64,000 bases of DNA. Origin: Chloroflexota bacterium. Lineage in GTDB: Bacteria > Chloroflexota > Limnocylindria > Limnocylindrales > CSP1-4. The stretch is taken from contig DAOTUU010000033.1 of NCBI GenBank assembly GCA_034436555.1, positions 259,720-323,719 of the forward strand, in the 5' to 3' direction. Numbering within the stretch: the first letter of the stretch is position 1; every line of letters starts with the position of its first letter. Position numbers and translations under genes: made by a program. Under the pieces are notes generated by a model, which saw nothing but the letters and a program-made list of their open reading frames with translations, was not told the DNA's origin and ran no database searches. Positions 4,637-42,425 of this stretch are shown piece by piece.

Positions 4637-6562
<1,926 letters not shown>

Positions 6563-20075: not shown

Positions 20076-20181
20076 CCTGCGTGCTCCCCGGCGTGGGCCG
20101 GGGGCGACAATGGGTGGTGCCTGCGGTCGTCGGGGTCCAGACTTTTCACGGGCTGTCGGCACCAAGCGAGCACGGCCTCGA

Positions 20182-21155: not shown

Positions 21156-21300
21156 CCATGTGGTTCGCGGTCGGACGCCAAGATAGCGACGATCGATGCC
21201 GGTTTCGCACAGGCGCTGCCGGATCTGACATTCCTGGTCCCCGAGTGACAGCGGTGTGCGAACGGCGCGAGGAACGGCAGCCCGGACCGGAACGTGGCGC

Positions 21301-25860: not shown

Positions 25861-28179
25861 TCAGGCCTGGTCGCGCTGGACCGAGATGATGTCGCGCAGC
25901 TGCTCCAGGCGTGACATGACCTTGGCGAGCTGGGCCACGGAGGTCACCTGGAGGGTGGCCTGGATCGTGGCGCGGTGGCCGTCCTGGACCATGACGTGCG
26001 CCGACACGATGCTGATCTTGTGCTCCGCGACGATGCTCGTGACATCCGCGAGGAGCCCGGTGCGGTCATAGCCGTCGAGGCGGACGGCGATGGGGTACGT
26101 CTGCTGGAGCGCCGCCTCCCACTCCACGTCGATGAGTCGCTCGATGTCCCGCTCGTTGACGATCGTGGCGCAGGTCGCGAGGTGCACGGTGACGCCGCGG
26201 CCGCGCGAGATGAAGCCCGTGATGGGATCGCCGGGAATCGGGTGGCAGCACTTCGCGAAGCGCACGAGCAGGTCGCCCACGCCCTTGACCCGGACACCGC
26301 CGGTGCGCGGCGGCGGTGGCGGCGCGACCTGGGGCAGCACCGCCTGGTTGGCATCATCGGCGACGCCCAGGCGCATGACCACGGTCTGTGCGGAGATCGC
26401 GCCGTAGCCGATGGCGGCGAAGAAGTCGTCCAGGCTCCCGAATCGGTCGCGATCCACCTGCTCCTGGAGCAGGTCCTGGGGGATCCGGTCGATGGACGTG
26501 CGGGCCAGGCGGTGCAGCTCCCGGTCCAGCGCGGCCTTGCCGTGGGCGATGTTCTCATCCCGCTGCTGGCGCTTGAACCATTGCCGGATCTTCTCCTTGG
26601 CATGGCTCGTGGTGACCACGCCGAGCCAGTCGCGCGACGGGCCGTGGGCGGCGCGCGTGGTCACGATCTCCACGATGTCGCCGTTCTTGAGCCGGTAGTC
26701 CAGAGCCACGAGCCGGTTGTTCACCTTCGCGCCGATGCAGGCATGGCCCACGTCGGTATGGATGCGGTATGCGAAGTCCAGGGGGGTGGCGCCGGCTGGC
26801 AGATCCTTGACGTCTCCCCGGGGCGTGAACACGAACACCTGGTCGCGGAAGATGTCGACCTTGACGCCCTCGACGAACTCCGTCGCGTCCGACACCTCGC
26901 GCTGCCAGTCCACCAGCTGGCGCAGCCAGGCGAGCTTCGCGTCGTAGGCGCGGTCGGAGCGCGACCCCTCCTTGTAGCGCCAGTGCGCCGCGACGCCCAT
27001 CTCCGACACGCGGTGCATGTCGTACGTCCGGATCTGGACCTCCAGCGGCTTTCCGTCGAGCGCGACCACGGCCGTGTGGAGCGACTGATAGCCGTTCGTC
27101 TTGGGCACCGCGATGTAGTCGTCGAACTGGCCCGGGATCGGGCGCCACAGGGTGTGGACGACGCCCAGGGCACCGTAGCAGTCCCGGGTGTCCTCCACGA
27201 GCACCCGCAGCGCGTGCAGGTCGTAGATCTCCTCGAGGCGCGCCTGCTTGCGCTGCATCTTCCGGTGGATGCTGTAGATGTGCTTGGGCCGGCCCGAGAT
27301 GTCCGCGTGGACGCCGGCATCCACGAGCGCCGCGTCCAGCACCACCATGGCGCGCTTGACGTACGCCTCGCGGAACCGGCGGTGGCTCTCGAGCTGCCGG
27401 GCCAGCTGGCGGTAGGCCTCGGGATCGAGGATCTTGAACGCGAGGTCCTCCAGCTCCCACTTGATCTGCCAGATGCCCAGGCGCTCCGCGAGGGGCGCGT
27501 AGATCTCCATCGTCTGGCGCGCGATGCGCTGCTGCTTCTCGATGGGCAATGCCGCGAGGGTGCGCATGTTGTGGAGCCGGTCGGCAAGCTTGATGAGGAC
27601 GACGCGGATGTCCTCCGCCATCGCCAGGAACATCTTGCGGATGTTCTCCGCCTGCTGCTCCTCGTGCGTTCGGGCGCTGAACTTGGACAGCTTGGTGACG
27701 CCGTCCACCAGGCGGGCGACCTCGGCGCCGAACCGCTCCTCCACGTCCGCGAGCGAGGCGTCCGTGTCCTCCGGCACGTCGTGGAGCAGCGCCGCCTGGA
27801 CGGTCACCACGTCCAGACCCAGCTCCGCGAGCGTCTGCGCCACCGCCAGCGGATGCACGATGTACTGCTCCCCGCTGGCCCGGCGCTGCGGCGCATGGGC
27901 CTCGAGCGCGAACCGGTACGCGGCCTCCACCTCGGCCGGATCCGCCGCGGGATAGCGCTCGTGGATCTCCGACTCGAGCCGCTTCTCCGCGGCATCGAGC
28001 TGCGCCTGCGAGGTGAGCGCCGGGGGTGAACCCTGCCCGTCCGGTCGTGCCGCAGCGAGAGGGGTCTGCATCCCGGCGGGCGTCCCGGCGATGGCCGCGG
28101 CGGGGGCCGCGGCGGCGCGCTCCGACTCGCCGCCGCGAGTGTCGAGGAGGTCGGCCGCAGTCGGGTCGCTGATGGACAT
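25861..28179 (-). CDS. relA: Bifunctional (p)ppGpp synthetase/hydrolase RelA/SpoT (Rel)
   Basis: HD domain (HPLAVAQTLAELGLDVVTVQAALLHDVPEDT), synthetase domain (GRPKHIYSIHRKM, ALRVLV), TGS and ACT regions. Start ATG at 28179 (MSISDPTAADLLD), about 773 aa. Confidence 0.9.
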   Translation of the reverse strand: MSISDPTAADLLDTRGGESERAAAAPAAAIAGTPAGMQTPLAAARPDGQGSPPALTSQAQLDAAEKRLESEIHERYPAADPAEVEAAYRFALEAHAPQRRASGEQYIVHPLAVAQTLAELGLDVVTVQAALLHDVPEDTDASLADVEERFGAEVARLVDGVTKLSKFSARTHEEQQAENIRKMFLAMAEDIRVVLIKLADRLHNMRTLAALPIEKQQRIARQTMEIYAPLAERLGIWQIKWELEDLAFKILDPEAYRQLARQLESHRRFREAYVKRAMVVLDAALVDAGVHADISGRPKHIYSIHRKMQRKQARLEEIYDLHALRVLVEDTRDCYGALGVVHTLWRPIPGQFDDYIAVPKTNGYQSLHTAVVALDGKPLEVQIRTYDMHRVSEMGVAAHWRYKEGSRSDRAYDAKLAWLRQLVDWQREVSDATEFVEGVKVDIFRDQVFVFTPRGDVKDLPAGATPLDFAYRIHTDVGHACIGAKVNNRLVALDYRLKNGDIVEIVTTRAAHGPSRDWLGVVTTSHAKEKIRQWFKRQQRDENIAHGKAALDRELHRLARTSIDRIPQDLLQEQVDRDRFGSLDDFFAAIGYGAISAQTVVMRLGVADDANQAVLPQVAPPPPPRTGGVRVKGVGDLLVRFAKCCHPIPGDPITGFISRGRGVTVHLATCATIVNERDIERLIDVEWEAALQQTYPIAVRLDGYDRTGLLADVTSIVAEHKISIVSAHVMVQDGHRATIQATLQVTSVAQLAKVMSRLEQLRDIISVQRDQA

Positions 28180-28217: not shown

Positions 28218-29552
28218 ATGATGACCCGACCGCAGATGCCCGCGCGCCCCCGCCACGCACCGCTCGTGATGCTGCTGGTCGCCCTGCTGCTGGGGGGCGT
28301 CGGCGGCATGGCGGCTCGGACGCCCGCCGCATCCGCGGGCGGTCGCGTCCACGTCGGCCCGCTCGCGCTGGCCCAGGCGTCCCCGTCGGCGTCGCCGGGT
28401 CCCCTCGCCTCCCCGCTCGCATCGATCGTGCCGGCGCCGTTCGATGCGGCGCTCGCCGAGGCGCTCCAGCGGGTCGTCGACGCGTCGTGGAGGCGCATCC
28501 CGGCACCCGGCATCTCGGTGGCGGTGCGATTGGCCGACGGGCGCATCTGGACCGGCGTGGCCGGCGACCGCCGCCTGTCGCCGCCCGAGCCGGTCGACCC
28601 GGACACCGTGTTCGCCATCGCGAGCATCACCAAGACGTTCGTGACCGCGGTCGTGCTCCAGCTCGTCGATGAGGGGCGGCTCTCCCTGGATGACCCGCTG
28701 GGCCGCTTCCTGCCCCGCTTCCCGCGCGCCCGGGACATCACCATCCGACAGCTCCTGGGTCACACCAGCGGCGTGGCCGACTACTTCGGGAGCCCGAGCT
28801 ATGCGAGCAGGGTGTTCAGCCGTCCGGGCCGCACCTGGACCCGGGCCCAGATCCTGCGCCTCGTGGGCGCGTCCTACTGCGACCCTGGCGACTGCTTCCG
28901 CTACTCCAACACGAACTTCGTGCTGCTCGGCCTGGTGGTCGAACAGGTGACCGGGAAGGACCTGTCGACGGTCATCCGGCGGCGCCTGCTCGATCCGCTG
29001 GGCCTCGACCGCACCGTGTTCCAGCCCGACGAGCGCACGCCGCGAGACGCCGCGCACGGACACCTGTGGGGCGGCGGTGACACGTTCTACGACCAGACGG
29101 GCAGCAGCCGGGTGCTGCCGCATCGCTCGGCATCCACGGTGGCCTGGGCGGCGGGCGCCATGGCTTCCACGGCCGGCGACCTGGCGCGCTGGGCGGCGGC
29201 GCTGTACGGCGGCGACGTGCTGTCGGATGCGGCACGAGCGGAGATGCTCACCTTCCGCCGCAGGGATGCGTACGGGCTGGGGACGCGCACCCGCCAGTTC
29301 GGCGGACACCGCGCTATCGGCCATCTGGGAGGCATCCGGGGCTACGAGCTCGCGATGTGGTACTTCCCGGACGCTGGCGCGTCCGTGGTCGTGCTCACGA
29401 ACCGCGGCCTGTTCAGCACCGACCGGACCGTGAAGCTGCTCACGAAGGCGCTGTTCCGCCACCTCGACGGGGATTCGACGCTCTCCCCGGCGCCATCACC
29501 GAGCGCCTCCGGCGCCCCGCTCCCCTCCCCGTCGGCCGCGCCCCCGGCCTGA
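28218..29552 (+). CDS. Serine hydrolase of the beta-lactamase / penicillin-binding protein fold (class C-like, possible DD-peptidase)
   Basis: SITKTF (SxxK), YSNTNF (YxN), HLGGIRG near the C-terminus. Signal peptide and Ser/Pro-rich tail. Confidence 0.8.
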   Translation: MMTRPQMPARPRHAPLVMLLVALLLGGVGGMAARTPAASAGGRVHVGPLALAQASPSASPGPLASPLASIVPAPFDAALAEALQRVVDASWRRIPAPGISVAVRLADGRIWTGVAGDRRLSPPEPVDPDTVFAIASITKTFVTAVVLQLVDEGRLSLDDPLGRFLPRFPRARDITIRQLLGHTSGVADYFGSPSYASRVFSRPGRTWTRAQILRLVGASYCDPGDCFRYSNTNFVLLGLVVEQVTGKDLSTVIRRRLLDPLGLDRTVFQPDERTPRDAAHGHLWGGGDTFYDQTGSSRVLPHRSASTVAWAAGAMASTAGDLARWAAALYGGDVLSDAARAEMLTFRRRDAYGLGTRTRQFGGHRAIGHLGGIRGYELAMWYFPDAGASVVVLTNRGLFSTDRTVKLLTKALFRHLDGDSTLSPAPSPSASGAPLPSPSAAPPA

Positions 29553-29568
29553 TCCGCGGGCGCCCCGG

Positions 29569-30741
29569 TCAGCCGTCGGCGGCTGTGGGCGCCCCGGTCG
29601 ATCGTCGGCGATCGCCCAGGCGCCACGCGGTCCGCACCATCCCGCCCCGCAGGCGAGACGGCGCGACCTCATGGGCCCCCACGAACGACACGGGTCGGGC
29701 ACCCCACTGGAGCTTGAAGCGATACAGGTTCCACAGCGGATGGGAGTCGTCCTGGGGCAGGCCCGCGGCCGCGTGCGTGTCCACGCCACCCAGGTCATAG
29801 GTCGTGAAGCCCGCCTCCGCCGCCCAGCGGATGATCGTCCACTGCAGCAGGAAGTTGCCGGGCACCCGCCCCTGCTCGGTGTCTCCCTCGCCCGCCTGGA
29901 ACAGGATCGCCCTCGCACCCGCGTGGTGGACGAGCGTGTGGGCGATGTCCCGTCCGTCCAGCCGCGCGAACCACAGCGAGGCCGCTCCCGCCTCGATGAG
30001 GACCCGCGAGGCGGCCGAGTGGTATGCCTCGGGGCGAGGCGTGAACCCGGTCCGGTCCCCGGTCCGGGCAAGCATCCGGTAGGCCGCCTCGAGCGCCGGA
30101 GCCAGCTCCGCGGGGTCGCTGTGGCGGTCCAGGCGCACGATCTCCACGCCCGCCCTGCGAGCCTTCTCCACGTTCCTGCGGGTGTTCTCGTTGACGAGCG
30201 CCCGCTGGGCCGCCTCATCGCGATGAAGCGGCAGCAGCATGCCCGTGCGGGACACCTGGATCTGCCTGCGGGCGGGCGTGAACCCGGCACCCAGCAGCGC
30301 GATCTCGAGCGGCGTGCCCGACTCCCAGGCCGGGTCGAGGACCAGCAGCGCCGCGCGGCGTGACCGCGCGATGCGCACCAGGCCCGCCAGCGCTCCGCGC
30401 ACCGCAGCCGGATCGTCACGCAGCAGCACCGGACCGAACGGCGCGTACAGGAACCGCCCCGGCAGCGCGGTCACGCGTCCGATGCGCGGCCCCCTCGGCA
30501 GGCGGCGAGCCAGCGGACCCGCCACGAGCCGCTCCTGGATCGAGACGACCGCGACGGGTCCGTCCGCGTCCTCGATGCGATAGCGCCCCACGTCCCAGCC
30601 GGCGGCGCCCTTGAACGCCCCCCAGGCGTGCGACTGGAGCGCCTCGCCCCGCGGTGAACGGACCGCGAGCGCATCCCAGGCGTCCGGTGCGGGCGCCGCC
30701 AGCGTCACGACCCGGACGCCGGGCCCGCGGTCGTCGCTCAC
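29569..30741 (-). CDS. FemAB-family peptidoglycan aminoacyltransferase
   Basis: GTG 30741 overlaps the murE stop (GTGA). DAWDALAVRSPRGEALQSHAWGAFKGAAGWDVGRYRIE ... NFLLQWTIIRWAAEAGFTTYDLGGVD ... NLYRFKLQWGARP. Confidence 0.8.
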   Translation of the reverse strand: MSDDRGPGVRVVTLAAPAPDAWDALAVRSPRGEALQSHAWGAFKGAAGWDVGRYRIEDADGPVAVVSIQERLVAGPLARRLPRGPRIGRVTALPGRFLYAPFGPVLLRDDPAAVRGALAGLVRIARSRRAALLVLDPAWESGTPLEIALLGAGFTPARRQIQVSRTGMLLPLHRDEAAQRALVNENTRRNVEKARRAGVEIVRLDRHSDPAELAPALEAAYRMLARTGDRTGFTPRPEAYHSAASRVLIEAGAASLWFARLDGRDIAHTLVHHAGARAILFQAGEGDTEQGRVPGNFLLQWTIIRWAAEAGFTTYDLGGVDTHAAAGLPQDDSHPLWNLYRFKLQWGARPVSFVGAHEVAPSRLRGGMVRTAWRLGDRRRSTGAPTAADG

Positions 30742-32330
30742 GATGACGTCCCGGTCGCCGTCCAGCCCAGGCCCGCCAGCACCTCGCGCGCCACGGTCGC
30801 CTCGTCCCAGGCCAGCGTCCCCGATGCCCGCTCGATGGTCTGCTCGTGGCCCTTGCCGGCGAGCAGCACGACATCGCCGGGCCTCGCGCGGGCCATCGCC
30901 TGTTCGATGGCGGCACGCCGGTCGGCGATGAGGAGGAGCGACCGGCCGCGGATGCCGCCACCCTGCTCGGCACCCTCGGCGATCTCCTCGAGGATCGCCT
31001 CGGGATCCTCCGAGCGGCCATCCTCGTCGGTGAGCACGACCAGCCGGCAGCGCTCCGCGGCCACGCGGCCCATCTCCGGTCGCTTCGTGCGGTCACGGTC
31101 GCCCGCGGAGCCGAACACCGCGACGAGCCCGCCCCCGTCGGCCGCCGCCGCCGGCGCGAGGTTGTCCAGCACCTTCGCCAGCGAGTCGGCGGTGTGGGCA
31201 TAGTCCACGATGACGCCGAAGGGCTGTCCCCGGTCGATCCGCTGCATCCGTCCGGGCACGCTCTCCACGGCCCCGATGCCGGCGCGCATGGCGGCCGGAT
31301 CCAGGCGCAGCGCCTCTCCCACCCCGATCGCGGCGAGCGCGTTGTGGGCGTTGAAGCGGCCCGCCAGCCGCAGCGCCAGGTCGTCCTCCCAGCGGGGCGT
31401 GCGGACGCGCAGTCGCATCCCGGTCGCGTCCTCTCGCAGACTGAGCGTCCGGATGTCGGCGGTCGGGCCCGCGCCATAGCCGTGGACGGTCGCGCCCGCC
31501 GCGCGCGCGGCGGCGCCGAACGCGCCCGCGACGGGATCGTCCAGGTTGACGACGGCGTGCTTGCCGTGGCCCTTCTCGGGGTTGGCGGGACCGCTCGCGA
31601 GCCACTCGAACAGGCGTCGCTTGGCCGCGATGTACGCGTCGCGGGTGCCGTGGAACTCGAGGTGCTCGGAGGTGACGTTGGTGAGCACGCCGACGTCGTA
31701 GGCGACCTCCGCGACACGGTCCTGGGCGAGGCCGTGGGAGGTGGACTCGACGACGGCCCAGCGATCTCCGGCATCGCGCATCGCGGCCAGCTGGGCCTGG
31801 AGCTCGGGCGCCTCGGGCGTGGTCGCCCGGGCCGGGTTGCCCCGGCTGCGCCCGCCCACGATGACATCGATGGTGCCGGTCAGGCCGGTCTGGAGGCCGC
31901 ACGCCTCGAGCATCGCCCGCACCAGCCACGCGGTGGTCGTCTTGCCGTCCGTGCCGGTGATGCCGACCACGCCCAGGTCGCGGCTCGGCTGATCGTGGAT
32001 CCAGGCCGCGGCCAGCGCGAGGGCCCGCCGCCCCTGGGTCACCAGCAGCTGCGGCACCGGCAGACCGGGCGTCGCTCGCTCCGCCACGACCGCCACCGCG
32101 CCCGAGGCCACCGCCGCCGGGACATGGTCGTGGCCGTCGGCGTGCCGGCCCCCGATGGCCACGAACAGGTCGCCCGGCGCCACGCGTCGGGAGTCCATCG
32201 CGACGGCGCGCACGAGGAGGTGCGCCGCCGGCTCCGCGTTCACCGCGAGGATGGCGCGCAGCAGCCCGCGCGCCGCGAGCAGGCCAACGAGACGGCCGAG
32301 CATCCGGCTCCGGTCGTCGGCCCGCGTCAT
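30738..32330 (-). CDS. murE: UDP-N-acetylmuramoyl-L-alanyl-D-glutamate--diamino acid ligase (MurE)
   Basis: MTRADDRSRMLG ... VVGITGTDGKTTTAWLV (Mur ligase P-loop), VVESTSHGL, DYAHTADSL, VFGSAGDRD. 530 aa. Start overlaps the upstream Fem stop (ATGA). Confidence 0.85.
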   Translation of the reverse strand: MTRADDRSRMLGRLVGLLAARGLLRAILAVNAEPAAHLLVRAVAMDSRRVAPGDLFVAIGGRHADGHDHVPAAVASGAVAVVAERATPGLPVPQLLVTQGRRALALAAAWIHDQPSRDLGVVGITGTDGKTTTAWLVRAMLEACGLQTGLTGTIDVIVGGRSRGNPARATTPEAPELQAQLAAMRDAGDRWAVVESTSHGLAQDRVAEVAYDVGVLTNVTSEHLEFHGTRDAYIAAKRRLFEWLASGPANPEKGHGKHAVVNLDDPVAGAFGAAARAAGATVHGYGAGPTADIRTLSLREDATGMRLRVRTPRWEDDLALRLAGRFNAHNALAAIGVGEALRLDPAAMRAGIGAVESVPGRMQRIDRGQPFGVIVDYAHTADSLAKVLDNLAPAAAADGGGLVAVFGSAGDRDRTKRPEMGRVAAERCRLVVLTDEDGRSEDPEAILEEIAEGAEQGGGIRGRSLLLIADRRAAIEQAMARARPGDVVLLAGKGHEQTIERASGTLAWDEATVAREVLAGLGWTATGTSS

Positions 32331-33424
32331 GCGCCCGCCCCCCCGGCGGTCGAGGCCATGGGCCCGGTGGTGCCGCGGAGGCGGAGCCGCCGGACACCCC
32401 GGACCCACAGGCGCCGACCCAGGACCATCGCGTCCCGCAGGATGGGCAGGGTCACCAGGTCGAGCGCGCCGACGTAGCGGACCTCGTGGCCGCCGAACCC
32501 CGCCTTGAACTGCTCGATGCCCGGGTGCGCCAGGCCCCACATGTCGTAGGTGTCGCAGCCCGCCGCGATCGACCGGCGCAACGCCTCCCACTTCAGCAGG
32601 TAGTTGGCCCGGGAGTCGGCGCCCGCCTGCGTCATGCCGCCATACGGCTCGGCCATCCGGTCGCCGCAGCGCACCAGGAACAGGGCCGCGACCGGGACCC
32701 CGTCGGACGTGTGCGCCAGCAGCAGCGATGCCTGGCCCGTCGGCAGGAAGGCATCCCACACCGCCTCGTAGGAGGCCAGGGACCGATGGAAGAAGCCCGT
32801 GCGCGCGGCGGTGTCGGCGAGGATGGCGTGGAACGCCGGCAGGTCCGCGCGGCCGCCCTCCCGGACCGCCACGCCAGAGCGCGTGGCCCGGCCCACGTAT
32901 TGCCGCCACTTGGAGCGCAGGCCCGCCCACACGGCGGCCTCGCCGGGCGCGAGGTCCACCACCCGGCTGCGGTCGTGCTGGACGGCGTCCGCATCCCGCC
33001 ACCCGCAGTGCCGCAGCAGCAGCGCCGCCGACACGTCCTCCCTGCCGGGATCCACCGTCACGTGGGTCAGGCGGTGGCGCCAGGCCGCCCTGCGCAGCGC
33101 GGCGGTGAACGCCGCGACCGACGGCTCGTCCCAGGTCGTGGCGATCGGACCGCGCGGCGCATAGCCCATCGCGAACGGTCCGGGACCCAGCCTGCGGACG
33201 AGGACCTGGGCGCCGATCGGACCGCTGCCGCCGTCGGCGACGACTCGTGTCGAGGTCCAGCCGTTGGGCCGCTTGCTGATGGCCCAGGCGGTTTGCTGGA
33301 GATGGTTCGGCGTGGCGCTCGCGGCGACGAAGGCATCCCATGTCGCGTCGTCTCGTCGGAGGGCGGCGAGCGAGGGACCGGCCTCGACCGCCCGGCCCGT
33401 CGGGATGCCGGGAGTGGTGGTCAT
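32327..33424 (-). CDS. FemAB-family peptidoglycan aminoacyltransferase
   Basis: ATG 33424 overlaps the upstream stop (ATGA). ATWDAFVAASATPNHLQQTAWAISKRPNGW ... NYLLKWEALRRSIAAGCDTYDMWGLAHPGIEQFKAGFGGHEV. Confidence 0.8.
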   Translation of the reverse strand: MTTTPGIPTGRAVEAGPSLAALRRDDATWDAFVAASATPNHLQQTAWAISKRPNGWTSTRVVADGGSGPIGAQVLVRRLGPGPFAMGYAPRGPIATTWDEPSVAAFTAALRRAAWRHRLTHVTVDPGREDVSAALLLRHCGWRDADAVQHDRSRVVDLAPGEAAVWAGLRSKWRQYVGRATRSGVAVREGGRADLPAFHAILADTAARTGFFHRSLASYEAVWDAFLPTGQASLLLAHTSDGVPVAALFLVRCGDRMAEPYGGMTQAGADSRANYLLKWEALRRSIAAGCDTYDMWGLAHPGIEQFKAGFGGHEVRYVGALDLVTLPILRDAMVLGRRLWVRGVRRLRLRGTTGPMASTAGGAGA

Positions 33425-35592
33425 GGGCCCGCCCGGAGCCTGCGCACGGCGCCCACCGACCGACGCGAGACGCGCCCCGCCCGATCGGCCCAGGGACGCA
33501 GAACGATGCGGCGCGCGGGCTCCCGGTCCACCCACACCGCCCCGAAGCCCGCCTTGTGCTCGTAGAGTCCGTGGTTCGGATCGCCCGGTCGTGGCGGCTC
33601 ACGACGACCGGGCAGGTCCACGCCGCCCAGATCGACATGACGCGCTCCCTCCAGCAGCGCGTCCGCCAGGAGCGTCGATCGCACCAGGTGCATGGTGCCC
33701 GGCAGCTCCCGCCGCCGGGTCGCGTCATCGGCGGAGTACGCCGTGGCGAACGCACCCCCCTGGAGGAACACCAGCACGCCGCCGAGCACCGCACCCTCGC
33801 GCTCGGCGACGTACAGGCGTGCCTGACCTGCCGCGATGAGCCGGGCCCAGAAGGCGAGATAGCCCAGCTCCGGGCGCATCGGGATGCCCAGGTCCTCCGC
33901 CCGCGCCACGAGCAGCTCGCCGAAGCGAGCGAGACGATCGCCCGCGGCGTCCACGCGGACCGAGACGCCCGACCTCTCGGCGCCCCGGATGCGCTGGCGC
34001 GTGCTCTTGGAGTAGGAGCCGAACAGCGCATCGACGTCCCGACCACCGGGCAGGACCAGGCGCATGACGTGGATGCTCGGCTGGACCTCCGCGGTGACCC
34101 CGAAGCCCGAGCGCTCCAGCGCCGCCGCCCAGGCCGGGTCGGCATCCCGCTCGGGATCGAGGAACAGCTCCGTGGCGCCCGCGTCGCGGGCCACACCCGC
34201 CAGCCGGACCACCCGATCGACGACGACCTCCACCGGGTCGCCGGCGTGCGCGGGACCCTTGCGACAGGTGGCGATGACGCCCGGCACGAGGCGCTGGCGG
34301 CGCAGCACGAGCAGGGCGCCCCGATCGTCCCCCAGGTCGACGAACCGAGGGTCCGCGCCCTGGGACCGGCGATGGTCCGCCCATGCCGTCCCCTGCATCA
34401 CGTGACCCCCCGGCACATCCACGGTCCGGGCGTTCCAGCCGTCGGGAGGAGCGACGGGCGGCCCGGGGGGCGCGTCCGACCGACCGGTCACGCCGTGACG
34501 GACGGTCCGGACGAGCCGGAGGCCAGCCGAGCGGCCCCGCTCTGCGACGGTCACGAGGGAGGCGGCCCGCGGGTCGGTCAGTAGGCGCCATGCGGCGACG
34601 TACCGCCGCTCCGTGCCACCGAACCCGGCCTTGAACGTCGCGACGCCGTCCGCGTCGGTGCCCCACATGTCGTAGCGCGCCATGCCCCGCTCGGCGGATC
34701 GGCGGATGGCCTCCCACTTCAGGAGGTGGTTCGCGCGACCGTGGGCGCCCTCCTGCGAGGAGGCGCCGTAGAGCTCGATGACCCGGTCCCCGCAGTCCAG
34801 CAGGAGCAGCGTCGCGACGGCCGCTCCGCCCGGCGCCCGCGCGATGAGCAGCCGCGCTCCGCCGCGCCGGGCCCACGCCGCATGCACGGCCCGGAACGCG
34901 GCGCCCGGTTCGAAGCCGACGCGCCGTGCCGTCTCGCGATACAGCGCCTCGAAATCGTCGAGGCCCTCCGCCCCCGCCTCGGCCACCAGGAATCCCGAGC
35001 GCCGCGCCTTGTTGACCGACCAGCGCGCGCTGGAGCGCAGGTCCCCCCACAGTTCGACCTCGGGCCGTCGCAGGTCGATGATCCGGGTGCGGTTGATCTG
35101 GATCTCGCCCGCGGGCTCCCATCCCGCCGCGGACAGCCAGCCCGCGGCCGGACCCTCGGCGTCGAGCTCCGGGTCGATCGTGACGTGGATCAGCCGCTCC
35201 TCCGCGGCGACGGCGCGCACCGCGCGGGTGAACGCGATGACGCCCGGCCCGTCGACCGTGGCGGCCACCGGGCCCCGAGGCGCATAGGCACGCGCCCACG
35301 GACCCGGCCGCAGCGATCGGATGAGCATCTGCGCCCCGATCGGTCGCCCATCCGACTCGGCGATCACCCGGCGCGTCCGCCAGCCCCTCGTGGCGTTCGC
35401 CTCCGCCCATGCGGTCAGCTGGGGGAACGATCCGTTCGGCGATGCCGCGACGAACGCGTCCCAGGCATCCGGGTCCTGGCGCAGCCGGTCCGCCAGGCGC
35501 GGCGTCGGGACATCCGACTGGACGCGGGTCTGGGCGCCCCTCCGGTCAACAGCGTCCGTGGCCGTCGCTGGAGCGGCGGTCACGTCGGTCAT
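33421..35592 (-). CDS. Tandem double FemAB-domain protein (two complete Fem aminoacyltransferase modules in one ~723-aa polypeptide)
   Basis: Module 1: PDAWDAFVAASPNGSFPQLTAWAEANATRGW ... NHLLKWEAIRRSAERGMARYDMWGTDADGVATFKAGFGGTER. Module 2: HVMQGTAWADHRRSQGADPRF ... YEHKAGFGAVWVD. ATG 35592 overlaps the murJ stop. Confidence 0.75.
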   Translation of the reverse strand: MTDVTAAPATATDAVDRRGAQTRVQSDVPTPRLADRLRQDPDAWDAFVAASPNGSFPQLTAWAEANATRGWRTRRVIAESDGRPIGAQMLIRSLRPGPWARAYAPRGPVAATVDGPGVIAFTRAVRAVAAEERLIHVTIDPELDAEGPAAGWLSAAGWEPAGEIQINRTRIIDLRRPEVELWGDLRSSARWSVNKARRSGFLVAEAGAEGLDDFEALYRETARRVGFEPGAAFRAVHAAWARRGGARLLIARAPGGAAVATLLLLDCGDRVIELYGASSQEGAHGRANHLLKWEAIRRSAERGMARYDMWGTDADGVATFKAGFGGTERRYVAAWRLLTDPRAASLVTVAERGRSAGLRLVRTVRHGVTGRSDAPPGPPVAPPDGWNARTVDVPGGHVMQGTAWADHRRSQGADPRFVDLGDDRGALLVLRRQRLVPGVIATCRKGPAHAGDPVEVVVDRVVRLAGVARDAGATELFLDPERDADPAWAAALERSGFGVTAEVQPSIHVMRLVLPGGRDVDALFGSYSKSTRQRIRGAERSGVSVRVDAAGDRLARFGELLVARAEDLGIPMRPELGYLAFWARLIAAGQARLYVAEREGAVLGGVLVFLQGGAFATAYSADDATRRRELPGTMHLVRSTLLADALLEGARHVDLGGVDLPGRREPPRPGDPNHGLYEHKAGFGAVWVDREPARRIVLRPWADRAGRVSRRSVGAVRRLRAGP

Positions 35593-37151
35593 CCGCGACC
35601 GACGGCCGAGCGCGTCAGGTGGACGGCCCTGGACAGTTCGGGAGTGCGCACGAGGCGACTGTACAGCAGGTACACGAGGAGAGCGGCGCCGCCGCCGACG
35701 ACCACCTGGAGGAGCGCGGCCACCCAGGGCGTGCCGCCGACTCCGGCGCCGGCCAGCCAGCCGCCCACGAGCGCCGCCGTGCCGGCCGCGAGCAGCGCCC
35801 CGACGACGAACGACGCGGCCCTCGCGAACGGGCGGAGCCCGAAGGCCGGGACGCGTCGATGGAGCAGCAGCGTGAGCGCGACCGCCTCGAACCAGCCACC
35901 GAGCGCGATGCCCAGCGCCAGGCCCTGGAGCCCGAGGGTCTGCCACGTGAGCAGCGACACCGCCACGTTGATGCCCACCGAGGCGACCGCCACGGTCACC
36001 GGGGTGCGCGTGTCGCGCCCGGCGTAGAAGCCGCGCGCGAGGATGACGTTCGCCGCATGGGCCGGCAGCCCCAGCAGGAAGACCGCCAGCGTGGCCGCGG
36101 TCGCCTCGACGGCGGCCTCGTCGAATCCCGGGAACAGCAGCTCGATGGATTGCACCCGGAACACGATGCCCACGGCCATGAGCAGCATCGTCATCCACAG
36201 CAGGAGCCGGACCGCCTCGCCCGTGAGCGTCGCGAACGTCGCCTGGTCATCCGACCCGCGCGACCGCGACATCGCAGGCAGGAGCACCATCCCCACCGGC
36301 ACCGCCACGACGCCCAGCGGGATCTGGAGCACGTTGAAGGCGATGTTGTAGACCGTGACCGCCGCCGCGCCGCCGAGCGCGAGCACCGTCACGGAGCTCG
36401 CCAGGGTGGTGTTCACGATGAACGTGACCTGGCTCGCACCCAGGCCGATGGCGCGAGGCACCATCAGGACGAGCGCCTCGCGCGCCTGGGGGTCACCGCC
36501 CCGGATGACGGGCGTCCAGGCGAAGCGGCCGCGCAGCGCCGGCAGCTGGACCGCGAAGTGGAGCACCGACCCGATCACGACGCCCAGCGCCGCCGCCGTC
36601 ACGCCCAGCAGCGGCGCGAGCGCGATCGCGACCACGAGGATCGCGGCGTTGTAGGTCACCGGTGCCATCGCCGCCGCCCCGAACCGGTTGTCCGCGTTCA
36701 GGATGGCGGACACGATCGCGCCCAGCGCGAGGAAGACCGGCGAGAGCAGCATCAGTCGCGTGAGCTCGACCGTCTGGCGCACCTGCTCGGCGTCGAATCC
36801 GGACACGATGGCGGGCACGATCTGCGGGGCGAACAGGAACATCAGCACCGCGAACGCGAGCAGCGCCAGGAGCACCGTGTTCGCGACGGCCGAGGCGACG
36901 CGCCACGCGCGGTGCTCCTCGCCGCGCGACAGCAGCTGGCTGAGCACCGGGATGAGCGCCGAGCCGAGCGCCCCGGCCGCCACGAGCTGGTACACCAGGT
37001 CGGGGATGCGGAAGGCGGCGTAGAACGGACCCAGCTCTTCGGGCGTCCAGAGGTTGCCCAGGACCACGACGCGGCCCCAGCCGAGGACGCGCGACGCGAG
37101 GAAGAACGCGAAGACCGTGAACCCGGCCCGCGCGAGATCCTGACGGGTCAC
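35589..37151 (-). CDS. murJ: Lipid II flippase MurJ (MviN)
   Basis: 520 aa, 14 predicted TM segments. MurJ motifs (LASRVLGWGRVVVLGNLW, FYAAFRIPDLVYQLVAAGALGSALIPVLS). ATG overlaps the xer stop (ATGA). Confidence 0.85.
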   Translation of the reverse strand: MTRQDLARAGFTVFAFFLASRVLGWGRVVVLGNLWTPEELGPFYAAFRIPDLVYQLVAAGALGSALIPVLSQLLSRGEEHRAWRVASAVANTVLLALLAFAVLMFLFAPQIVPAIVSGFDAEQVRQTVELTRLMLLSPVFLALGAIVSAILNADNRFGAAAMAPVTYNAAILVVAIALAPLLGVTAAALGVVIGSVLHFAVQLPALRGRFAWTPVIRGGDPQAREALVLMVPRAIGLGASQVTFIVNTTLASSVTVLALGGAAAVTVYNIAFNVLQIPLGVVAVPVGMVLLPAMSRSRGSDDQATFATLTGEAVRLLLWMTMLLMAVGIVFRVQSIELLFPGFDEAAVEATAATLAVFLLGLPAHAANVILARGFYAGRDTRTPVTVAVASVGINVAVSLLTWQTLGLQGLALGIALGGWFEAVALTLLLHRRVPAFGLRPFARAASFVVGALLAAGTAALVGGWLAGAGVGGTPWVAALLQVVVGGGAALLVYLLYSRLVRTPELSRAVHLTRSAVGRG

Positions 37152-38143
37152 GCGTCCCTGTCGGCGTCGATCCGATCGTCCGCACCCGCCGGGACGGTGA
37201 CCCGCGCGCCGCCGCCCGCCGACCGGGCGCGCGGATGGGCCGAGCGGTACGTGGTGCGCAGCCGAACCGGCGAGACGTGGGTGTAGACCTGCGTCGTGGC
37301 GAGGCTCGCGTGGCCCAGCAGCTCCTGGACGATGCGCAGATCCGCCCCGCCGTCCAGCAGGTGGCTCGCGAACGAGTGGCGCAGGGTGTGCGGCGAGACG
37401 CCCTCCGGGAGCCCGGCACGGGCGGCGAGCCGGTCGACCCGCTCACGCATGCCCCGCACACCCAGGGGCGCCCCGAAGCGGTTGAGGAAGACGGTCCCGT
37501 CGTCCGGGGCGTGGGCCGTGGCCCTGAGCTGCGGCCGACCTCTGGCGAGCCACGTCTCCAGAGCGTCGCGCGCCGGACCGCCCAGGAGGGTCACCCGCTC
37601 CTTGCGGCCCTTGCCCAGCACCCGCACCTCGCCGCGGCGCAGGTCCAGGTCGCCGACCGTGAGCGCGGCGAGCTCGCTGATGCGCAACCCGGCGGCATAG
37701 GCCAGCTCCACGATCGCGCGATCGCGCAGCTCCAGGGACGCAGCGGTGGAGGGTGCCTGCGCGGATCCCTCGACGGCGTCCAGCAGGCGCTCCACGTCCT
37801 CCACCTCGAGCACCGTCGGCAGTCGGCCCGGCTGGCGTGGCGTGACGACCGCGGCCCAGGGGTCTCCCGCCACCCAGCCCTCGCGGCGACCGTGGCGATA
37901 GAACGAGCGGAGTGCCGCGAGCCGTGCGGCGATGGAGCGGCGCGCGAGTCCCTCCCCGGCCAGCGTCGCCAGGTAGGCGCGCAGCTGGCGCCGGCCGGGA
38001 CGGGTCCAGTCGACGCCCGCGGGACCCGCGGCCCAGCGCAGGAAGTGGCCCACCGCGCCCTCGTACGCCCGCCGCGTGTGAGGCGACGCGTCCCGGGCGT
38101 CCAGGGCCCGCAGCCAGGCGAGCAGCGCCGACTCGCCGGTCAT
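37148..38143 (-). CDS. xerC: Tyrosine site-specific recombinase XerC/XerD family (CodV/XerC-like by synteny with topA)
   Basis: Core-binding N-domain (HTRRAYEGAVGHFLRW), catalytic R...HxxR...Y (LRISELAALTVGDL, HTLRHSFASHLLDGGADLRIVQELLGHASLATTQVYTHV). ATG at 38143. Confidence 0.85.
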   Translation of the reverse strand: MTGESALLAWLRALDARDASPHTRRAYEGAVGHFLRWAAGPAGVDWTRPGRRQLRAYLATLAGEGLARRSIAARLAALRSFYRHGRREGWVAGDPWAAVVTPRQPGRLPTVLEVEDVERLLDAVEGSAQAPSTAASLELRDRAIVELAYAAGLRISELAALTVGDLDLRRGEVRVLGKGRKERVTLLGGPARDALETWLARGRPQLRATAHAPDDGTVFLNRFGAPLGVRGMRERVDRLAARAGLPEGVSPHTLRHSFASHLLDGGADLRIVQELLGHASLATTQVYTHVSPVRLRTTYRSAHPRARSAGGGARVTVPAGADDRIDADRDA

Positions 38144-38177
38144 CAGGCCGGCCACGCCCCGGACGCGGCGCGTCCCA

Positions 38178-40610
38178 TCAGGACGTGGACTTCGTGGTCC
38201 GCGTCCGGCGGGTGCGAGCCGCCCCGGTCGCGGTTCGGCCTCGCGCGCCACCCGATCCACGGCGGGGCTTCGCGGCGATGGCCTCGGGATCCGGGGGGCC
38301 GCCAGGGAGCTGCGACCCGACGACGACCGGCTCGGGCAGCTCCACGGGCGCACCGCAGCGCAGGCACAGCCCGACCCCGTCCGCCTTGCGCGCCACCGGG
38401 CCGCCGTCGGCATCGTGGGTCGCGCCGACCGGTTCATGGTTCGTGGTGAAGGCGCAGCGCGGGTAGCGGGAGCAGCCGTGGAACACGTTGCCCGTGCGGC
38501 GCGCCCGGCGCGCCGTGAGCGTGCCCTCGCTGCACAGCGGGCAGGTGACCGTGAACGGCAGCGGCGGCGGGGGCGGCGGCCCCGTCCGGTGGATGTACGT
38601 GCAGTCCGGGTAGCGGGAACAGCCCGCGAACACGCCGAACCGACCGCGCTTGGCGACGAGCGTGCCCTGGCCGCACTCCGGGCAGGCCTCGCCCACGCCC
38701 TCGGCGGTGATCGCCTCCGGCTCCTCGCCCGGCAGCGGCCGGGACTCCCTGTGCTCGGGATAGAGCGAGCAGGCGAGGAACCGCCCGTTGCGGCCCAGCC
38801 GGATGACCATCGGGTGCCCCTCGGAGCAGACCTCGTCGGTCTCCTCGGTGGTGAAGTCGCGCCGGCGCAGCTCCTTGCGCTTCTCGTCCACGAGCGAGCG
38901 CAGCGGGCCGTAGAAGTCGCGCAGCAGCGGCACCCATTCCCGCTCGCCGCTGGCGATCTCGTCCAGGCGCTCCTCCATGCGCGCCGTGAACTCGAGGTCC
39001 ACGAACTCCGTGAAGTGCTCCACGAGCAGGTCCGTGACGATGCCCGCGACCTCGGTGGGGTGGAGCCGCCTGTCGGTGACCGTGACGTAGCCCCGGTCCA
39101 CGATCGTGCTGATCGTGGCGGCATACGTGGACGGCCGGCCGATGCCCCGCTCCTCCAGGGCCTTGATGAGCGTCGCCTCCGAGTAGCGCGGCGGCGGCTC
39201 CGTGAAGTGCTGGGTGCTCTCCACGTCCACCACGGACGTGCGGTCGCCCTCCGCGAGCGACGGCAGCGCGCCGTCCGCCTCGTCCTCGGCGCCGTCGTCG
39301 CGGCCTTCGGTGTAGACCCGGGTGAAGCCGTCGAAGAGCGTCCTGCTGGCGCTCGCCCGCAGGCCGTAGGGGCCCGCGGTCAGCTCGACGGTGGTGGTCT
39401 CGATGCGCTTGTCGGCCATCTGGGACGCCAGCGCGCGCTGCCAGATGAGCCGATACAGGTTCAGCTCGTCCTTGCCCAGCCAGCGGCGCAGCGAATCGGG
39501 GTCGCGCTCGAAGCTGGTGGGTCGGATCGCCTCGTGGGCCTCCTGGGCGCCCTTGACCTTGCCGAAGAGGCGGCCCTTGGGCATCGTGTACGCGTCGCCG
39601 TAGCGCTTCGCGATGACGCCCCGCGCCTCCCCCATGGCCACGCCCGCCATCGCGGTCGAGTCGGTGCGCATGTAGGTGATGAGGCCCACGGGCTCGCCGT
39701 CGATCTCGATGCCCTCGTACAGCCGCTGGGCGACCGACATCGTGCGCTTGGGGCTGAAGCCCAGCTTCCGGCTGGCCTCCTGCTGGAGGGTGCTGGTGAT
39801 GAACGGCGGGCGGGGACTGCTCTTGCTCTGGCGGACGCCGATGCTGTCGACGACGGGCGCGAGCGCCCTGAGCCTGGCGGCGTGGTCCTGGGCGGCCCGC
39901 TCCGCCTGGATCGAGGTCTCCTTCCTGGACAGCTCGCCGCCGCGGTTGAGCGGGACGCCGTCCAGCTTCACCACATCCGCGTGGAAGCGCTCGCCGCGCA
40001 CCGTCTCCAGGAGCGCCCGCAGCGTCCAGTACTCGCGTGGCGTGAAGGCCGCGATCTCGCGCTCGCGTTCCACCACGAGGCGCACGGCGACGGACTGCAC
40101 CCGGCCCGCCGAGAGGCCGGCCCGGACCTTGCGCGAGAGGAGCGGGCTGAGCGTGTAGCCCACCATCCGATCCACGATGCGCCGGGTCTGCTGCGCGTCG
40201 ACCAGGTTCATGTCGATGCCGCGCGGGTGCTGGAACGCGTCCCGGATGGCACCCTCGGTGATCTCCGAGAATGTGACGCGGCGGGTCTTCGCGTCCGGGA
40301 TCTCGGCGGCCTGGGCCACGTGCCACGCGATCGCCTCGCCCTCGCGATCCAGGTCGGTGGCGAGGTAGACGGTCGTGGCGCGCCCGGCCTCCCTGCCGAT
40401 CTGCGTGACCTGCTTGCGCCGGTCGTCGCTGATGACGTACTCGGGCGCGAAGTCATGGTCAACGTCCACGCCCAGCTTGCCCTTGCCCGGGTTCTCCGGC
40501 AGGTCCCGGACATGGCCGTACGAGGCGAGCACCTTGTAGTCGTCCCCGAGGTAGCGCTCGATGGTGCGGGCCTTGGCGGGTGATTCCACGATCACCAGGT
40601 TCTTCGTCAT
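38178..40610 (-). CDS. topA: DNA topoisomerase I
   Basis: TOPRIM (MTKNLVIVESPAKARTIERYLG), active-site region (GLITYMRTDS), three C4 zinc ribbons (CPECG...CSRYPDC), basic C-terminal tail. ATG at 40610. Confidence 0.9.
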   Translation of the reverse strand: MTKNLVIVESPAKARTIERYLGDDYKVLASYGHVRDLPENPGKGKLGVDVDHDFAPEYVISDDRRKQVTQIGREAGRATTVYLATDLDREGEAIAWHVAQAAEIPDAKTRRVTFSEITEGAIRDAFQHPRGIDMNLVDAQQTRRIVDRMVGYTLSPLLSRKVRAGLSAGRVQSVAVRLVVEREREIAAFTPREYWTLRALLETVRGERFHADVVKLDGVPLNRGGELSRKETSIQAERAAQDHAARLRALAPVVDSIGVRQSKSSPRPPFITSTLQQEASRKLGFSPKRTMSVAQRLYEGIEIDGEPVGLITYMRTDSTAMAGVAMGEARGVIAKRYGDAYTMPKGRLFGKVKGAQEAHEAIRPTSFERDPDSLRRWLGKDELNLYRLIWQRALASQMADKRIETTTVELTAGPYGLRASASRTLFDGFTRVYTEGRDDGAEDEADGALPSLAEGDRTSVVDVESTQHFTEPPPRYSEATLIKALEERGIGRPSTYAATISTIVDRGYVTVTDRRLHPTEVAGIVTDLLVEHFTEFVDLEFTARMEERLDEIASGEREWVPLLRDFYGPLRSLVDEKRKELRRRDFTTEETDEVCSEGHPMVIRLGRNGRFLACSLYPEHRESRPLPGEEPEAITAEGVGEACPECGQGTLVAKRGRFGVFAGCSRYPDCTYIHRTGPPPPPPLPFTVTCPLCSEGTLTARRARRTGNVFHGCSRYPRCAFTTNHEPVGATHDADGGPVARKADGVGLCLRCGAPVELPEPVVVGSQLPGGPPDPEAIAAKPRRGSGGARGRTATGAARTRRTRTTKSTS

Positions 40611-40698
40611 CGCGGCGGAGGATAGCACGGGGTCCTCGCCGGACCGCCCCCGGGCGGGGTGCCCGCCCGGGGGCCCACGCACGCTCCCCGAGTCGCGC

Positions 40699-41076
40699 TC
40701 AGGCCTGGCGCATCCGCTGCAGCAGCTCCTCGGCGTGCGCCGCCTCCTCGGCATCGTCGACATCCGACAGGTCGTCGTCCGGCACCGCGAGCGATCGACC
40801 CGCGTCGGATTCATCGTCCCGCTCCAGCGGCTCGCCCGCGGGCAGCGCCGGGAGGTCGGAGGCCGCCATCGCCGCCTGCGGGATCTCGATGAAGCGGATG
40901 TGGACGAGCGGATAGAGGAACCACGACTCCGTGTGGTCGATGAACCCGGGCTTTCGTCCGTCGAGGAACCGCAGGTTCGTGACGGTGATGCACACGTCCG
41001 CCGCGGTGGGCAGCGCGCGCAGGTCGCACACCAGCGGCTGTTCCGAGGCGAAGTGAAGGACGGCTCCCTGGATCAT
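40699..41076 (-). CDS. Hypothetical protein with acidic C-terminal tail
   Basis: 125 aa, balanced composition, then DDDLSDVDDAEEAAHAEELLQRMRQA. Lies between dprA and topA. Confidence 0.45.
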   Translation of the reverse strand: MIQGAVLHFASEQPLVCDLRALPTAADVCITVTNLRFLDGRKPGFIDHTESWFLYPLVHIRFIEIPQAAMAASDLPALPAGEPLERDDESDAGRSLAVPDDDLSDVDDAEEAAHAEELLQRMRQA

Positions 41077-41216: not shown

Positions 41217-42425
41217 TCACCCGTCCGGACCGGACGCACCCGTGGGCGAGGCGGCGGCCAGGAGCGGTCCGGAGGGCAGATGCATCGCGCCGATCGGCGA
41301 GGTCCAGCCTCGCAGCTGGAGGAGCGTCAGCGCGCCCGCCACGACCGGCGCGGGCAGCCCCGTCCGGACGATCAGGGCATCCGACGTGGTGGGCCCCTCA
41401 TGGAGCTGCTCGGCGACCGCCCGCTCGACCGACCCGAGCATCGCCAGCGCCGCGCGGTAGCCCAGGCGTGGCACGGCGCCCTCGCCCCTGACGGTCGGCG
41501 CCGCGTCGAGGCCCAGGTCCACCACGAGCTCGTCGAGGCCCACGAGCGGCCGCGCGGGCGTCTCGCGCAGCAGCGCGAGGCAGCCCGCCGCCGCGAGGTC
41601 CCCCGGGCGGCCCGGGGCGACCAGGAGCCGTCGCCCCTGCTCGAGGGCGTGGCGCGCCGTGATGAGGGCGCCGCTGCGCGCGGGCGCCTCCACCACGATC
41701 GTGCCCAGGGAGAGGGCGCTGATGATGCGGTTGCGGCGCGGGAACGTGCCGCGCGTGGGCGCGACGTGCGGTGCGTGCTCGCTGAGGATGGCCCCGCCGC
41801 CCTCCACGATGGCGCGCCCCAGCCGGTCGTGGGCGCGCGGACCCGGATGCTCGAATCCGCCGCCGATGACGGCCACCGTGCGCCCGCCCGCCTCGACCGC
41901 CGCGGCGTGGGCCGCCCCGTCGATGCCCACCGCCAGTCCGGACACGACGACCGCGCCGGCCTCGACGAGCCGCCGCGCCACGCGCGTCGCGAGCGCCCTG
42001 CCGGACGGCGTGGGATGGCGCGTGCCCACCACCGCGACGCTTCGCGGCTCTCTGACCGCGTCGGCGGAACCGAGCCCGAAGACGGCCACCGGAGGAGGAT
42101 CGAGGTCGCGCAGACGGGCTGGATAGTCGGCGTCCAGCGGCGTGAGCGCCCAGGCATCCCAGGTGCGGAGGCGGCGCTGCGTGGCGCGTGGGTCCAGGGC
42201 GCTGGCACGGATGCGGCTCGCGGTGAGCAGCGTCAGTCGTCCGGGCGCCGCATCCAGCAGCCGGCCGATGGCCCTGTCCGCGTCCGGTCCGGCGGCCGCC
42301 TCCAGCGTCGCGCGCCCGCTCCCGAAGTGGCGCACGAAGCGCCCGAGCATGCCCTCGCCCACGCCGTCCACGCTCACCAGCGCGAGCCACGCGTCACGCT
42401 CCGAGACATCCGAGCGGCCGGTCAT
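41217..42425 (-). CDS. dprA: DNA processing protein DprA (Smf)
   Basis: Rossmann-like DprA core (VAVVGTRHPTPSGRALATRVARRLVEAGAVVVSGLAVGIDGAAHAAAVEAGGRTVAVIGGG). ATG overlaps the comM stop. Confidence 0.85.
   Translation of the reverse strand: MTGRSDVSERDAWLALVSVDGVGEGMLGRFVRHFGSGRATLEAAAGPDADRAIGRLLDAAPGRLTLLTASRIRASALDPRATQRRLRTWDAWALTPLDADYPARLRDLDPPPVAVFGLGSADAVREPRSVAVVGTRHPTPSGRALATRVARRLVEAGAVVVSGLAVGIDGAAHAAAVEAGGRTVAVIGGGFEHPGPRAHDRLGRAIVEGGGAILSEHAPHVAPTRGTFPRRNRIISALSLGTIVVEAPARSGALITARHALEQGRRLLVAPGRPGDLAAAGCLALLRETPARPLVGLDELVVDLGLDAAPTVRGEGAVPRLGYRAALAMLGSVERAVAEQLHEGPTTSDALIVRTGLPAPVVAGALTLLQLRGWTSPIGAMHLPSGPLLAAASPTGASGPDG

Follow-up and report, generated by a model that had tools for sequence, protein, structure and literature searches.

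A probable standard peptidoglycan-precursor locus with a large Fem set and a fused two-module Fem enzyme in a soil-type Chloroflexota genome

Does a group of Fem genes packed around murJ and murE, away from other cell-wall genes, encode a dedicated cross-bridge pathway or the ordinary wall machinery of its lineage? We address this question for a 64,000-nt stretch of a Chloroflexota genome (hereafter the window), in which six consecutive minus-strand genes at positions 29569–38143 encode a Xer tyrosine recombinase, the lipid II flippase MurJ, a protein with two Fem modules in tandem, a single-module Fem protein, MurE and a second single-module Fem protein (Table 1). The coordinates and identities given for these genes in a first-pass annotation of the same DNA are reproduced by direct translation and by Pfam and NCBIfam, respectively. 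That annotation had read the cluster as a dedicated pathway or as the source of a second, specialised lipid II. We consider it likely instead that the cluster is the peptidoglycan-precursor locus standard for soil Chloroflexota of the Limnocylindria/Ellin6529 type, with a Fem set that is the largest among the relatives sampled, and that it serves an ordinary A3-type bridged wall. It is a known kind of system, a Fem cross-bridge set with MurE and MurJ in a lineage-typical position, with an above-average Fem count and a fused two-module enzyme.

Genes of the window (~73% GC) were recovered by codon-position GC analysis and direct translation and assigned to families with Pfam and NCBIfam at curated cutoffs. 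Neighbourhood look-ups and a MurE pattern scan of the GTDB species genomes supplied the related loci, which were mapped by tblastn. The comparison yields a common backbone in ~30 species-level Chloroflexota metagenome-assembled genomes (MAGs), comM-dprA-(orf)-topA-xerC-murJ-[Fem x0-3]-murE-[Fem]-(convergent beta-lactamase-fold gene)-relA-...-hisS-[Fem]-aspS. Because the same murJ–murE slot between topA and relA recurs in these ~30 relatives, murJ–murE appears to be a fixed housekeeping pair and the Fem genes its variable cargo. murJ adjoins xerC in all related loci and, in ~ten genomes (L006, L009-L013, L034, L037, L039, L043), abuts murE directly, without any intervening Fem gene. The number and type of Fem modules vary sharply among close relatives, from 0 to 5, with the window at the upper end. 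MurE identity to the relatives, on which the taxonomic placement rests, is at most 68%, and the nearest MurE proteins outside the class are those of other Chloroflexota, at 44–48%.

The gene arrangement is not an assembly artefact, because an independent contig reproduces the locus: in the Logan assembly of run DRR075734, an 11.1-kb contig matches window positions 28632–39764 at 99.95% identity with identical gene calls. All five junctions within the six-gene cluster are 4-nt start/stop overlaps, as had been annotated, but the reported count of four ATGA and one GTGA does not hold; there are three and two, in the order GTGA, ATGA, ATGA, ATGA, GTGA from xer to the last Fem gene. Overlaps of this length join 10 of the 32 same-strand neighbour pairs of the window and 5 of the 27 that remain when the cluster is excluded. 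By our own arithmetic, the chance of five in a row is ~0.185^5, or 2e-4, so that the run exceeds background. Five consecutive 4-nt overlaps, though such overlaps are common in a 73% GC genome, indicate a tightly packed unit, and they indicate co-translation inside a long co-directional string that also contains comM, dprA, topA and xerC.

The position of murE outside the division and cell wall (dcw) cluster, one ground for the idea of a specialised pathway, is real but not special. We ran tblastn with the dcw proteins of a Rhodococcoides locus (L047) against the window and against flanks of up to 10 kb on each side of murE. No dcw gene was found near murE in the window or within these Chloroflexota flanks, the only match being a MurF cross-match to murE itself, and all the Chloroflexota loci retrieved share this lack. 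Where MurE carries the DNPR motif, each actinobacterial, proteobacterial or acidobacterial locus of sufficient length had the order rsmH-ftsI-murE-murF-mraY-murD-ftsW-murG-murC. The class-wide fixed position of the window murE, the typical family score of its product (469.5 bits) and Chloroflexota outgroups at 44–48% identity argue that it may well be the only murE of the genome.

MurE matches all three of its domain families (PF01225, PF08245 and PF02875) and exceeds the TIGR01085 cutoff of 257.3 bits by a wide margin. Its P-loop GITGTDGKTT is kept, and the Lys of 'AAKRRLF', which we take to be the carbamylated Lys position, aligns with the 'AK' of all templates. At the DNPR position the protein has EDGR (residues 432–437 TDEDGR, window 31020–31037), which is also present in the independent assembly and is thus not a sequencing error. 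Across 60 loci, DNPR occurs in all loci of the diaminopimelate (DAP) type (actinobacterial and proteobacterial) and [DE]DPR in almost every Chloroflexota locus and in two spirochaete loci, the close relatives having EDPR; two Limnocylindrus-type loci have DHPR and the Saccharimonadia loci EDNR or EDDR. The change of Pro to Gly was seen in the window MurE alone. In the template alignment, M. tuberculosis MurE has DNPR, and the T. maritima enzyme (4BUB), which adds L- and D-Lys, has DDPR; like most Chloroflexota it carries Asp for the Asn of DNPR and keeps the Arg, and the window enzyme differs from it in the Pro to Gly change.

Through its Asn and its Arg, DNPR holds DAP by the distal carboxylate (PMC3829189), and ligases whose use of DAP has been authenticated conserve this motif (PMC3681970). 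The Asn is lost here, and meso-DAP is therefore argued against. The position-3 residue is most likely L-ornithine (L-Orn) and less likely L-Lys, a preference that we base on the chemotaxonomy of cultured Chloroflexota (PMC3236041, PMC12453558). The wall of Ktedonobacter contains Orn:Ala:Glu:Ser:Gly at 0.7:1.8:1.0:0.8:1.9, the interpeptide bridge having Ser at its N-terminus (PMC3236041); that of Nitrolancetus contains both Orn and Lys and lacks DAP (PMC3504966), and that of Dictyobacter L-Orn, Gly and beta-Ala (PMC12453558).

The Fem genes encode true Fem-fold proteins, and the suspicion that they might be GCN5-related N-acetyltransferases (GNAT) without the Fem fold was checked and is not borne out. 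FemAB (PF02388, cutoff 24 bits) is matched at 110 bits, over three stretches, by the tandem protein, at 106.3 bits by Fem 32327–33424, at 48.7 bits by Fem 29569–30741 and at 78 bits by a fifth Fem gene, which, as annotated before, lies with hisS (22413..21301; GTGA overlap with hisS 23714..22410). By all-against-all BLASTP and a neighbour-joining tree that includes modules of related loci, the five modules fall into three orthogroups: G1 (the tandem N-terminal module, Fem 32327–33424 and the hisS-linked Fem, with mutual identities of 42–49%), G2 (the tandem C-terminal module) and G3 (Fem 29569–30741). A fourth orthogroup, G4, was found in relatives and has no member in the window. Profile comparisons place G1 closest to S. 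aureus FemX (FemX_Sa, 6SNR; 5.4e-48), ahead of Weissella viridescens FemX (FemX_Wv; 2e-26) and FemA (3.2e-21). G2 likewise matches FemX_Sa (1.2e-25) before FemX_Wv (6e-16), and G3 matches FemX_Sa at 8e-12.

The position of the catalytic Lys, Lys305 in FemX_Wv, whose role has been described (PMC12945691), is conserved. None of 16 G1 modules departs from the aligned K321 and none of 11 G2 modules from its counterpart, and the 40 fused homologues keep K321 and K680 without exception. The G1 motif 'FKagFGG' aligns with 'FKHVF' of FemX_Wv, the residue before the catalytic Lys is His and not Phe in G2, and 'LYRFKLQWG' of G3 aligns with 'LWAFKKVWG' of S. aureus FemX.

Evidence on the fold itself, from AlphaFold2 (AF2) and Foldseek, covers the tandem protein; the single-module genes rest on sequence matches. 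The AF2 model, built with 40 fused homologues, has a mean pLDDT of 88.3 and shows two modules that fold independently and are both modelled with confidence, with a disordered linker (residues 365–376) between them; their relative orientation is undefined at a pTM of 0.53. In a Foldseek search of the PDB, this model matches FemX_Sa (4.4e-22), FemX_Wv (~1e-19) and FemA (6e-16) best, with TM to target of 0.68–0.77, followed by the aminoacyl-tRNA peptide synthases Sbb17/Sba18 and then by MprF domains. The helical (coiled-coil) insertion between the GNAT domains is absent: the modules are ~340 aa long, and the alignments jump from ~232 to ~297 of FemX_Sa. The window modules therefore lack the helical arm by which class II Fem proteins (FemA, FemB and FemX_Sa) are defined. 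An aminoacyl-tRNA donor and an acceptor at position 3 of the stem peptide are predicted, a prediction backed by the genomic linkage to murJ and murE.

The occupancy of the murJ–murE interval differs in kind as well as in number. G2 is followed by a separate G1 gene in L005, L008, L014, L017 and L061, the order is G1 then G2 in L007, L018, L019 and L022, and the two are fused as G1–G2 in the window, L001-L003, L015 and L016. That G1 and G2 are neighbours in either order or fused suggests that they may catalyse successive steps or work together in a complex. The extra G1 copy at 32327–33424 is unique to this genome among the sampled loci and is also present on the independent Logan contig (L063), and, beyond this genome, G3 occurs only in L001-L003, the closest relatives. 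We considered whether the extra copy is a recent duplicate of the tandem N-terminal module and rejected this, as the neighbour-joining tree groups it with the separate G1 gene that precedes murE in L005. Immediately behind hisS, the Fem gene belongs to G1 in the window, L001 and L006 and to the unrelated G4 in L008 and L017 (for example L001 21132–22181, L008 17352–18425 and L017 17465–18562), often with a 4-nt overlap with hisS; either this slot is permissive or there is a functional hisS–Fem link. A separate observation concerns L004 (positions 6200–9990, from a palsa_1032 MAG), in which ~3.8 kb between murJ and murE carry three plus-strand open reading frames (ORFs) of 515, 269 and 299 aa that match no Pfam family and do not encode Fem proteins, so that the slot can take other cargo.

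Homologues of the tandem Fem protein all come from Chloroflexota MAGs, some of them labelled Candidatus Limnocylindria; ~40 are full-length fused proteins with 55–76% identity from several independent sources. When 1.84 billion cluster representatives were searched exhaustively with HMMER, 7266 relatives emerged at E <= 0.001, and among the best 150 of these are several further proteins of ~700–770 aa with two or three matched stretches and just 31–35% identity. Two such distant proteins, L062 and P0156, have 725–768 aa and 31–35% identity to the window protein. The tandem architecture thus recurs elsewhere, and it is already in databases under a generic FemA/FemB name. P0156 belongs to Caldilinea sp. 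(MCX6040185.1); the gene in L062 (8001–10277 of a 5.03-Mb contig, ERZ26050812) adjoins a Bac_transf sugar transferase and a gene of the UDP-glucose pyrophosphorylase family, not murE or murJ. A literature search on Fem genes in Chloroflexi/Limnocylindria and on tandem Fem fusions found nothing specific, and one on histidine in the walls of Thermosporothrix gave no usable result. Two sets of apparent MurJ–Fem fusions were discarded. Proteins with MurJ and FemAB Pfam domains (P0066, P0073, P0074, P0076, P0082-P0085) contain long Arg/Pro/Gly-rich stretches and are most likely frameshifted high-GC gene calls, and in stop-to-stop ORFs across murJ and Fem (L005, L008, L018, L022, L026, L061) the frame differs from that of murJ, which fits a 4-nt overlap and not a fusion.

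On this reading MurE, with EDGR in place of DNPR in its pocket, would install L-Orn, possibly L-Lys, at position 3, and lipid II would be made by genes elsewhere in the genome. The three Fem orthogroups (G1 x3, G2 x1, G3 x1) would then lengthen the side chain stepwise, adding one residue at a time to its amine from charged tRNAs, on lipid II or on its UDP precursor, with Gly, Ser or Ala the likeliest additions. MurJ would flip the branched lipid II, and an exported AmpH-like serine peptidase would trim or remodel stem peptides outside the membrane, the outcome being an A3-type, indirectly cross-linked wall. The bridged, non-direct cross-link proposed by the first-pass annotation is a sensible prediction.

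Several points weigh against this account. The search covered the window and the flanks of related loci, and a second murE elsewhere in the genome is possible. The Pro to Gly change of EDGR is unique among the loci surveyed; Fem and MurE specificities are not readable from sequence, and the wall chemistry we draw upon is that of cultured Chloroflexota, not of this lineage. The presence of three G1 paralogues may reflect redundancy, differences in regulation or another role. Operon boundaries are left undefined by a promoter and terminator consensus scan of 28–44.5 kb, which gave one plus-strand promoter-like site and zero terminators, and we infer the transcript boundaries. Scans for tRNA genes and Rfam families found a single tRNA in the window, a tRNA-Met at 62.7 kb, and no dedicated cell-wall tRNA near the locus.

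A dedicated second pathway, which would make a specialised lipid II beside a canonical dcw murE, could account for a murE outside dcw that keeps company with a flippase and many Fem genes and has an atypical EDGR, and the genome was examined at this locus, the rest lying beyond the search. The xerC-murJ-murE block shared by ~30 relatives, about ten of them without intervening Fem genes, speaks against it, as do the lack of dcw neighbours in all Chloroflexota loci and a typical MurE whose nearest relatives outside the class are again from Chloroflexota, which fits vertical descent. The GTDB scan found no genome with two murE matches, a weak argument because the patterns are specific to this MurE. 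We regard such a pathway as very unlikely. It is more improbable still that the Fem-like proteins act off peptidoglycan, in tRNA-dependent synthesis of natural-product peptides (PacB, DhpH or Sbb17-like) or in lipid aminoacylation (MprF-like). Foldseek does also find Sbb17/Sba18 and the soluble domains of MprF, LPG_synthase_C is matched weakly at 23.1 bits, under its cutoff, and the tandem Fem genes of other lineages are not next to murE; however, FemX and FemA are the best matches by many orders of magnitude in both sequence and structure, Fem genes lie between murJ and murE class-wide, and no biosynthetic-cluster genes are nearby.

The multiplicity of Fem genes, read by the first-pass annotation as the sign of an unusual bridge, leads to two further readings. 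S. aureus carries FemX, FemA, FemB, FmhA and FmhC, and five modules are at the upper end but not unprecedented. The walls of cultured Chloroflexota already contain L-Orn with Gly, Ser or beta-Ala (PMC3236041, PMC12453558). It is conceivable, though we doubt it, that the lineage builds an unusually long or mixed tRNA-dependent bridge on an Orn stem with up to five Fem modules, in which the fused G1–G2 protein would add two successive residues without release of the intermediate, the post-hisS Fem would use an atypical donor such as His-tRNA, and EDGR would mark a changed position-3 residue. A small but appreciable chance falls to the idea that some of the extra Fem genes (32327–33424, the hisS-linked gene and G3) are bridge-editing immunity or resistance factors like Lif/Epr, FmhA/FmhC or VanK, which would protect against lytic enzymes or antibiotics. 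The range of 0–5 modules among close relatives, the restriction of G3 to one subclade and the extra G1 copy in this genome only would suit such a role, and a preprint reports Fem-like self-immunity to a streptococcal murein hydrolase (bioRxiv 10.1101/2024.09.27.615381). The adjacent genes include no hydrolase, bacteriocin or van gene, however, and the Fem genes themselves are translationally coupled within a housekeeping string; all keep the catalytic Lys like core enzymes, which does not discriminate between the roles. An immunity role for the extras is compatible with a standard wall-building role for the remaining Fem genes.

With the S. aureus FemX (FmhB)/FemA/FemB pentaglycine system (6SNR, 1LRZ) the locus shares several FemAB double-GNAT paralogues predicted to extend the position-3 chain, and the FK motif is kept; the window modules differ in lacking the helical insertion, in that two of them are fused and in their clustering with murJ and murE, whereas the S. 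aureus genes are scattered or form a femAB operon and act on a Lys acceptor in place of a probable Orn. Weissella viridescens FemX (1NE9, 4II9) has a module of similar size (~335–350 aa), no coiled-coil arm, a TM to target of 0.76–0.77 and the Lys305 equivalent, but is only ~22–23% identical, and acts on soluble UDP-MurNAc-pentapeptide with Ala-tRNA. The canonical murE of the dcw (mra) cluster has the same family, domain order and catalytic motifs, whereas the window murE lies between murJ/Fem and relA with no ftsI or murF flank. The comM-dprA-topA-xerC string presumably resembles the smf-topA-gid-codV order of Bacillus; it has xerC right after topA, as in the Bacillus-type smf(dprA)-topA-...-codV(xerC) arrangement, but continues with murJ, Fem and murE and not with hslVU/codY.

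This string also accounts for the Xer gene, whose place at the head of the cluster had been called unusual. xer is the last gene of the comM-dprA-topA-xerC string conserved in relatives and overlaps murJ by GTGA; it stands at the cluster head because of the old topA–xerC linkage and appears to be a neighbour by synteny and not a functional partner. The protein matches Phage_integrase (151.9 bits) and a SAM-like N domain and has the HxxR motif at 252; it scores 298 bits against TIGR02224 XerC (cutoff 335.15), 266.9 against TIGR02225 (cutoff 329.6) and 280.2 against NF001399 (cutoff 279). MurJ is matched by PF03023 (251.2 bits) and TIGR01695 (259.4 bits, cutoff 235.55).

Table 1 Coordinates of the six-gene cluster, its Fem modules and the flanking genes in the window
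Feature	Coordinates	Strand	Length	Remarks
comM	43999..42422	-		upstream, co-directional
dprA	42425..41217	-		upstream, co-directional
small ORF	40699-41076	co-directional	125 aa	between dprA and topA; no Pfam match
topA	40763..38178	-		ends 34 nt before xer
Xer tyrosine recombinase	38143..37148	-	331 aa	
MurJ	37151..35589	-	520 aa	
tandem Fem	35592..33421	-	723 aa	
tandem Fem, N-terminal module (G1)	34495..35592	-		residues 1-366; FK motif F320-K321; AF2 pLDDT >90
tandem Fem, C-terminal module (G2)	33421..34464	-		residues 377-723; motif H679-K680
single-module Fem (G1)	33424..32327	-	365 aa	48% identity to tandem N-terminal module
MurE	32330..30738	-	530 aa	
single-module Fem (G3)	30741..29569	-	390 aa	
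exported beta-lactamase-fold serine peptidase, AmpH / D-aminopeptidase-like	28218..29552	+	444 aa	PF00144, 217.3 bits
relA/spoT	25861..28179	-	772 aa	downstream boundary of conserved block
hisS	22410..23714	-	434 aa	housekeeping; conserved relA...hisS...aspS string
fifth Fem, hisS-linked G1 subclade	21301..22413	-	370 aa	GTGA overlap with hisS

On the far side of the cluster, the convergent gene annotated as a serine hydrolase of the penicillin-binding-protein fold is indeed of that kind by its PF00144 match. Its product has a signal anchor and the motifs SxxK (S136-I-T-K), YxN (Y229-S-N) and HxG (H-L-G); its stop lies 16 nt from that of the last Fem gene, and it holds the same position in most relatives. 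Further downstream follow relA/spoT, a DUF4352 protein, the hisS–Fem pair, an insertion rich in insertion sequences (IS), and aspS.

The insertion (15131–21300) separates the hisS-linked Fem gene from aspS, the two lying close together in several relatives. It contains an rve-integrase transposase (17706–18713), an IS110-family transposase (18808–20016), an HTH_Tnp_1 ORF (20182–20673, or to 21030 from an upstream start) and a stretch of ~2.5 kb whose GC content is lower (0.64 in the 16–18 kb bin), in which two long minus-strand ORFs (15430–16800 and 16070–17365) have no Pfam match. Upstream of the cluster, the 125-aa ORF overlaps the start of topA by 65 nt as called, so that the start of one or the other is probably miscalled; at the same dprA–topA position L001 and L002 have ORFs of 103–107 aa, and this appears to be a conserved small gene. 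Beyond comM, the intervals 44216–46173 and 46246–47490 encode an ECF-type (extracytoplasmic function) sigma factor with an ATGA overlap with a 467-aa protein and, alongside on the opposite strand, a fusion of a response-regulator receiver with a ParA/MinD-like ATPase. The sole match of the 467-aa protein is a PD40 beta-propeller repeat, and it may be an anti-sigma factor.

For annotation, the locus indicates that a murE away from dcw and beside Fem genes is the normal state in this phylum, and it leaves current understanding unchanged. It offers a predicted wall chemistry for a class of soil and freshwater Chloroflexota that is widespread and uncultured: cross-bridges built from tRNA on a non-DAP, probably Orn-based stem. 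The range from none to five Fem modules in an otherwise fixed locus forms a natural series for the evolution of cross-bridges, and the natural two-module Fem fusion could help to explain how successive Fem steps are coordinated.

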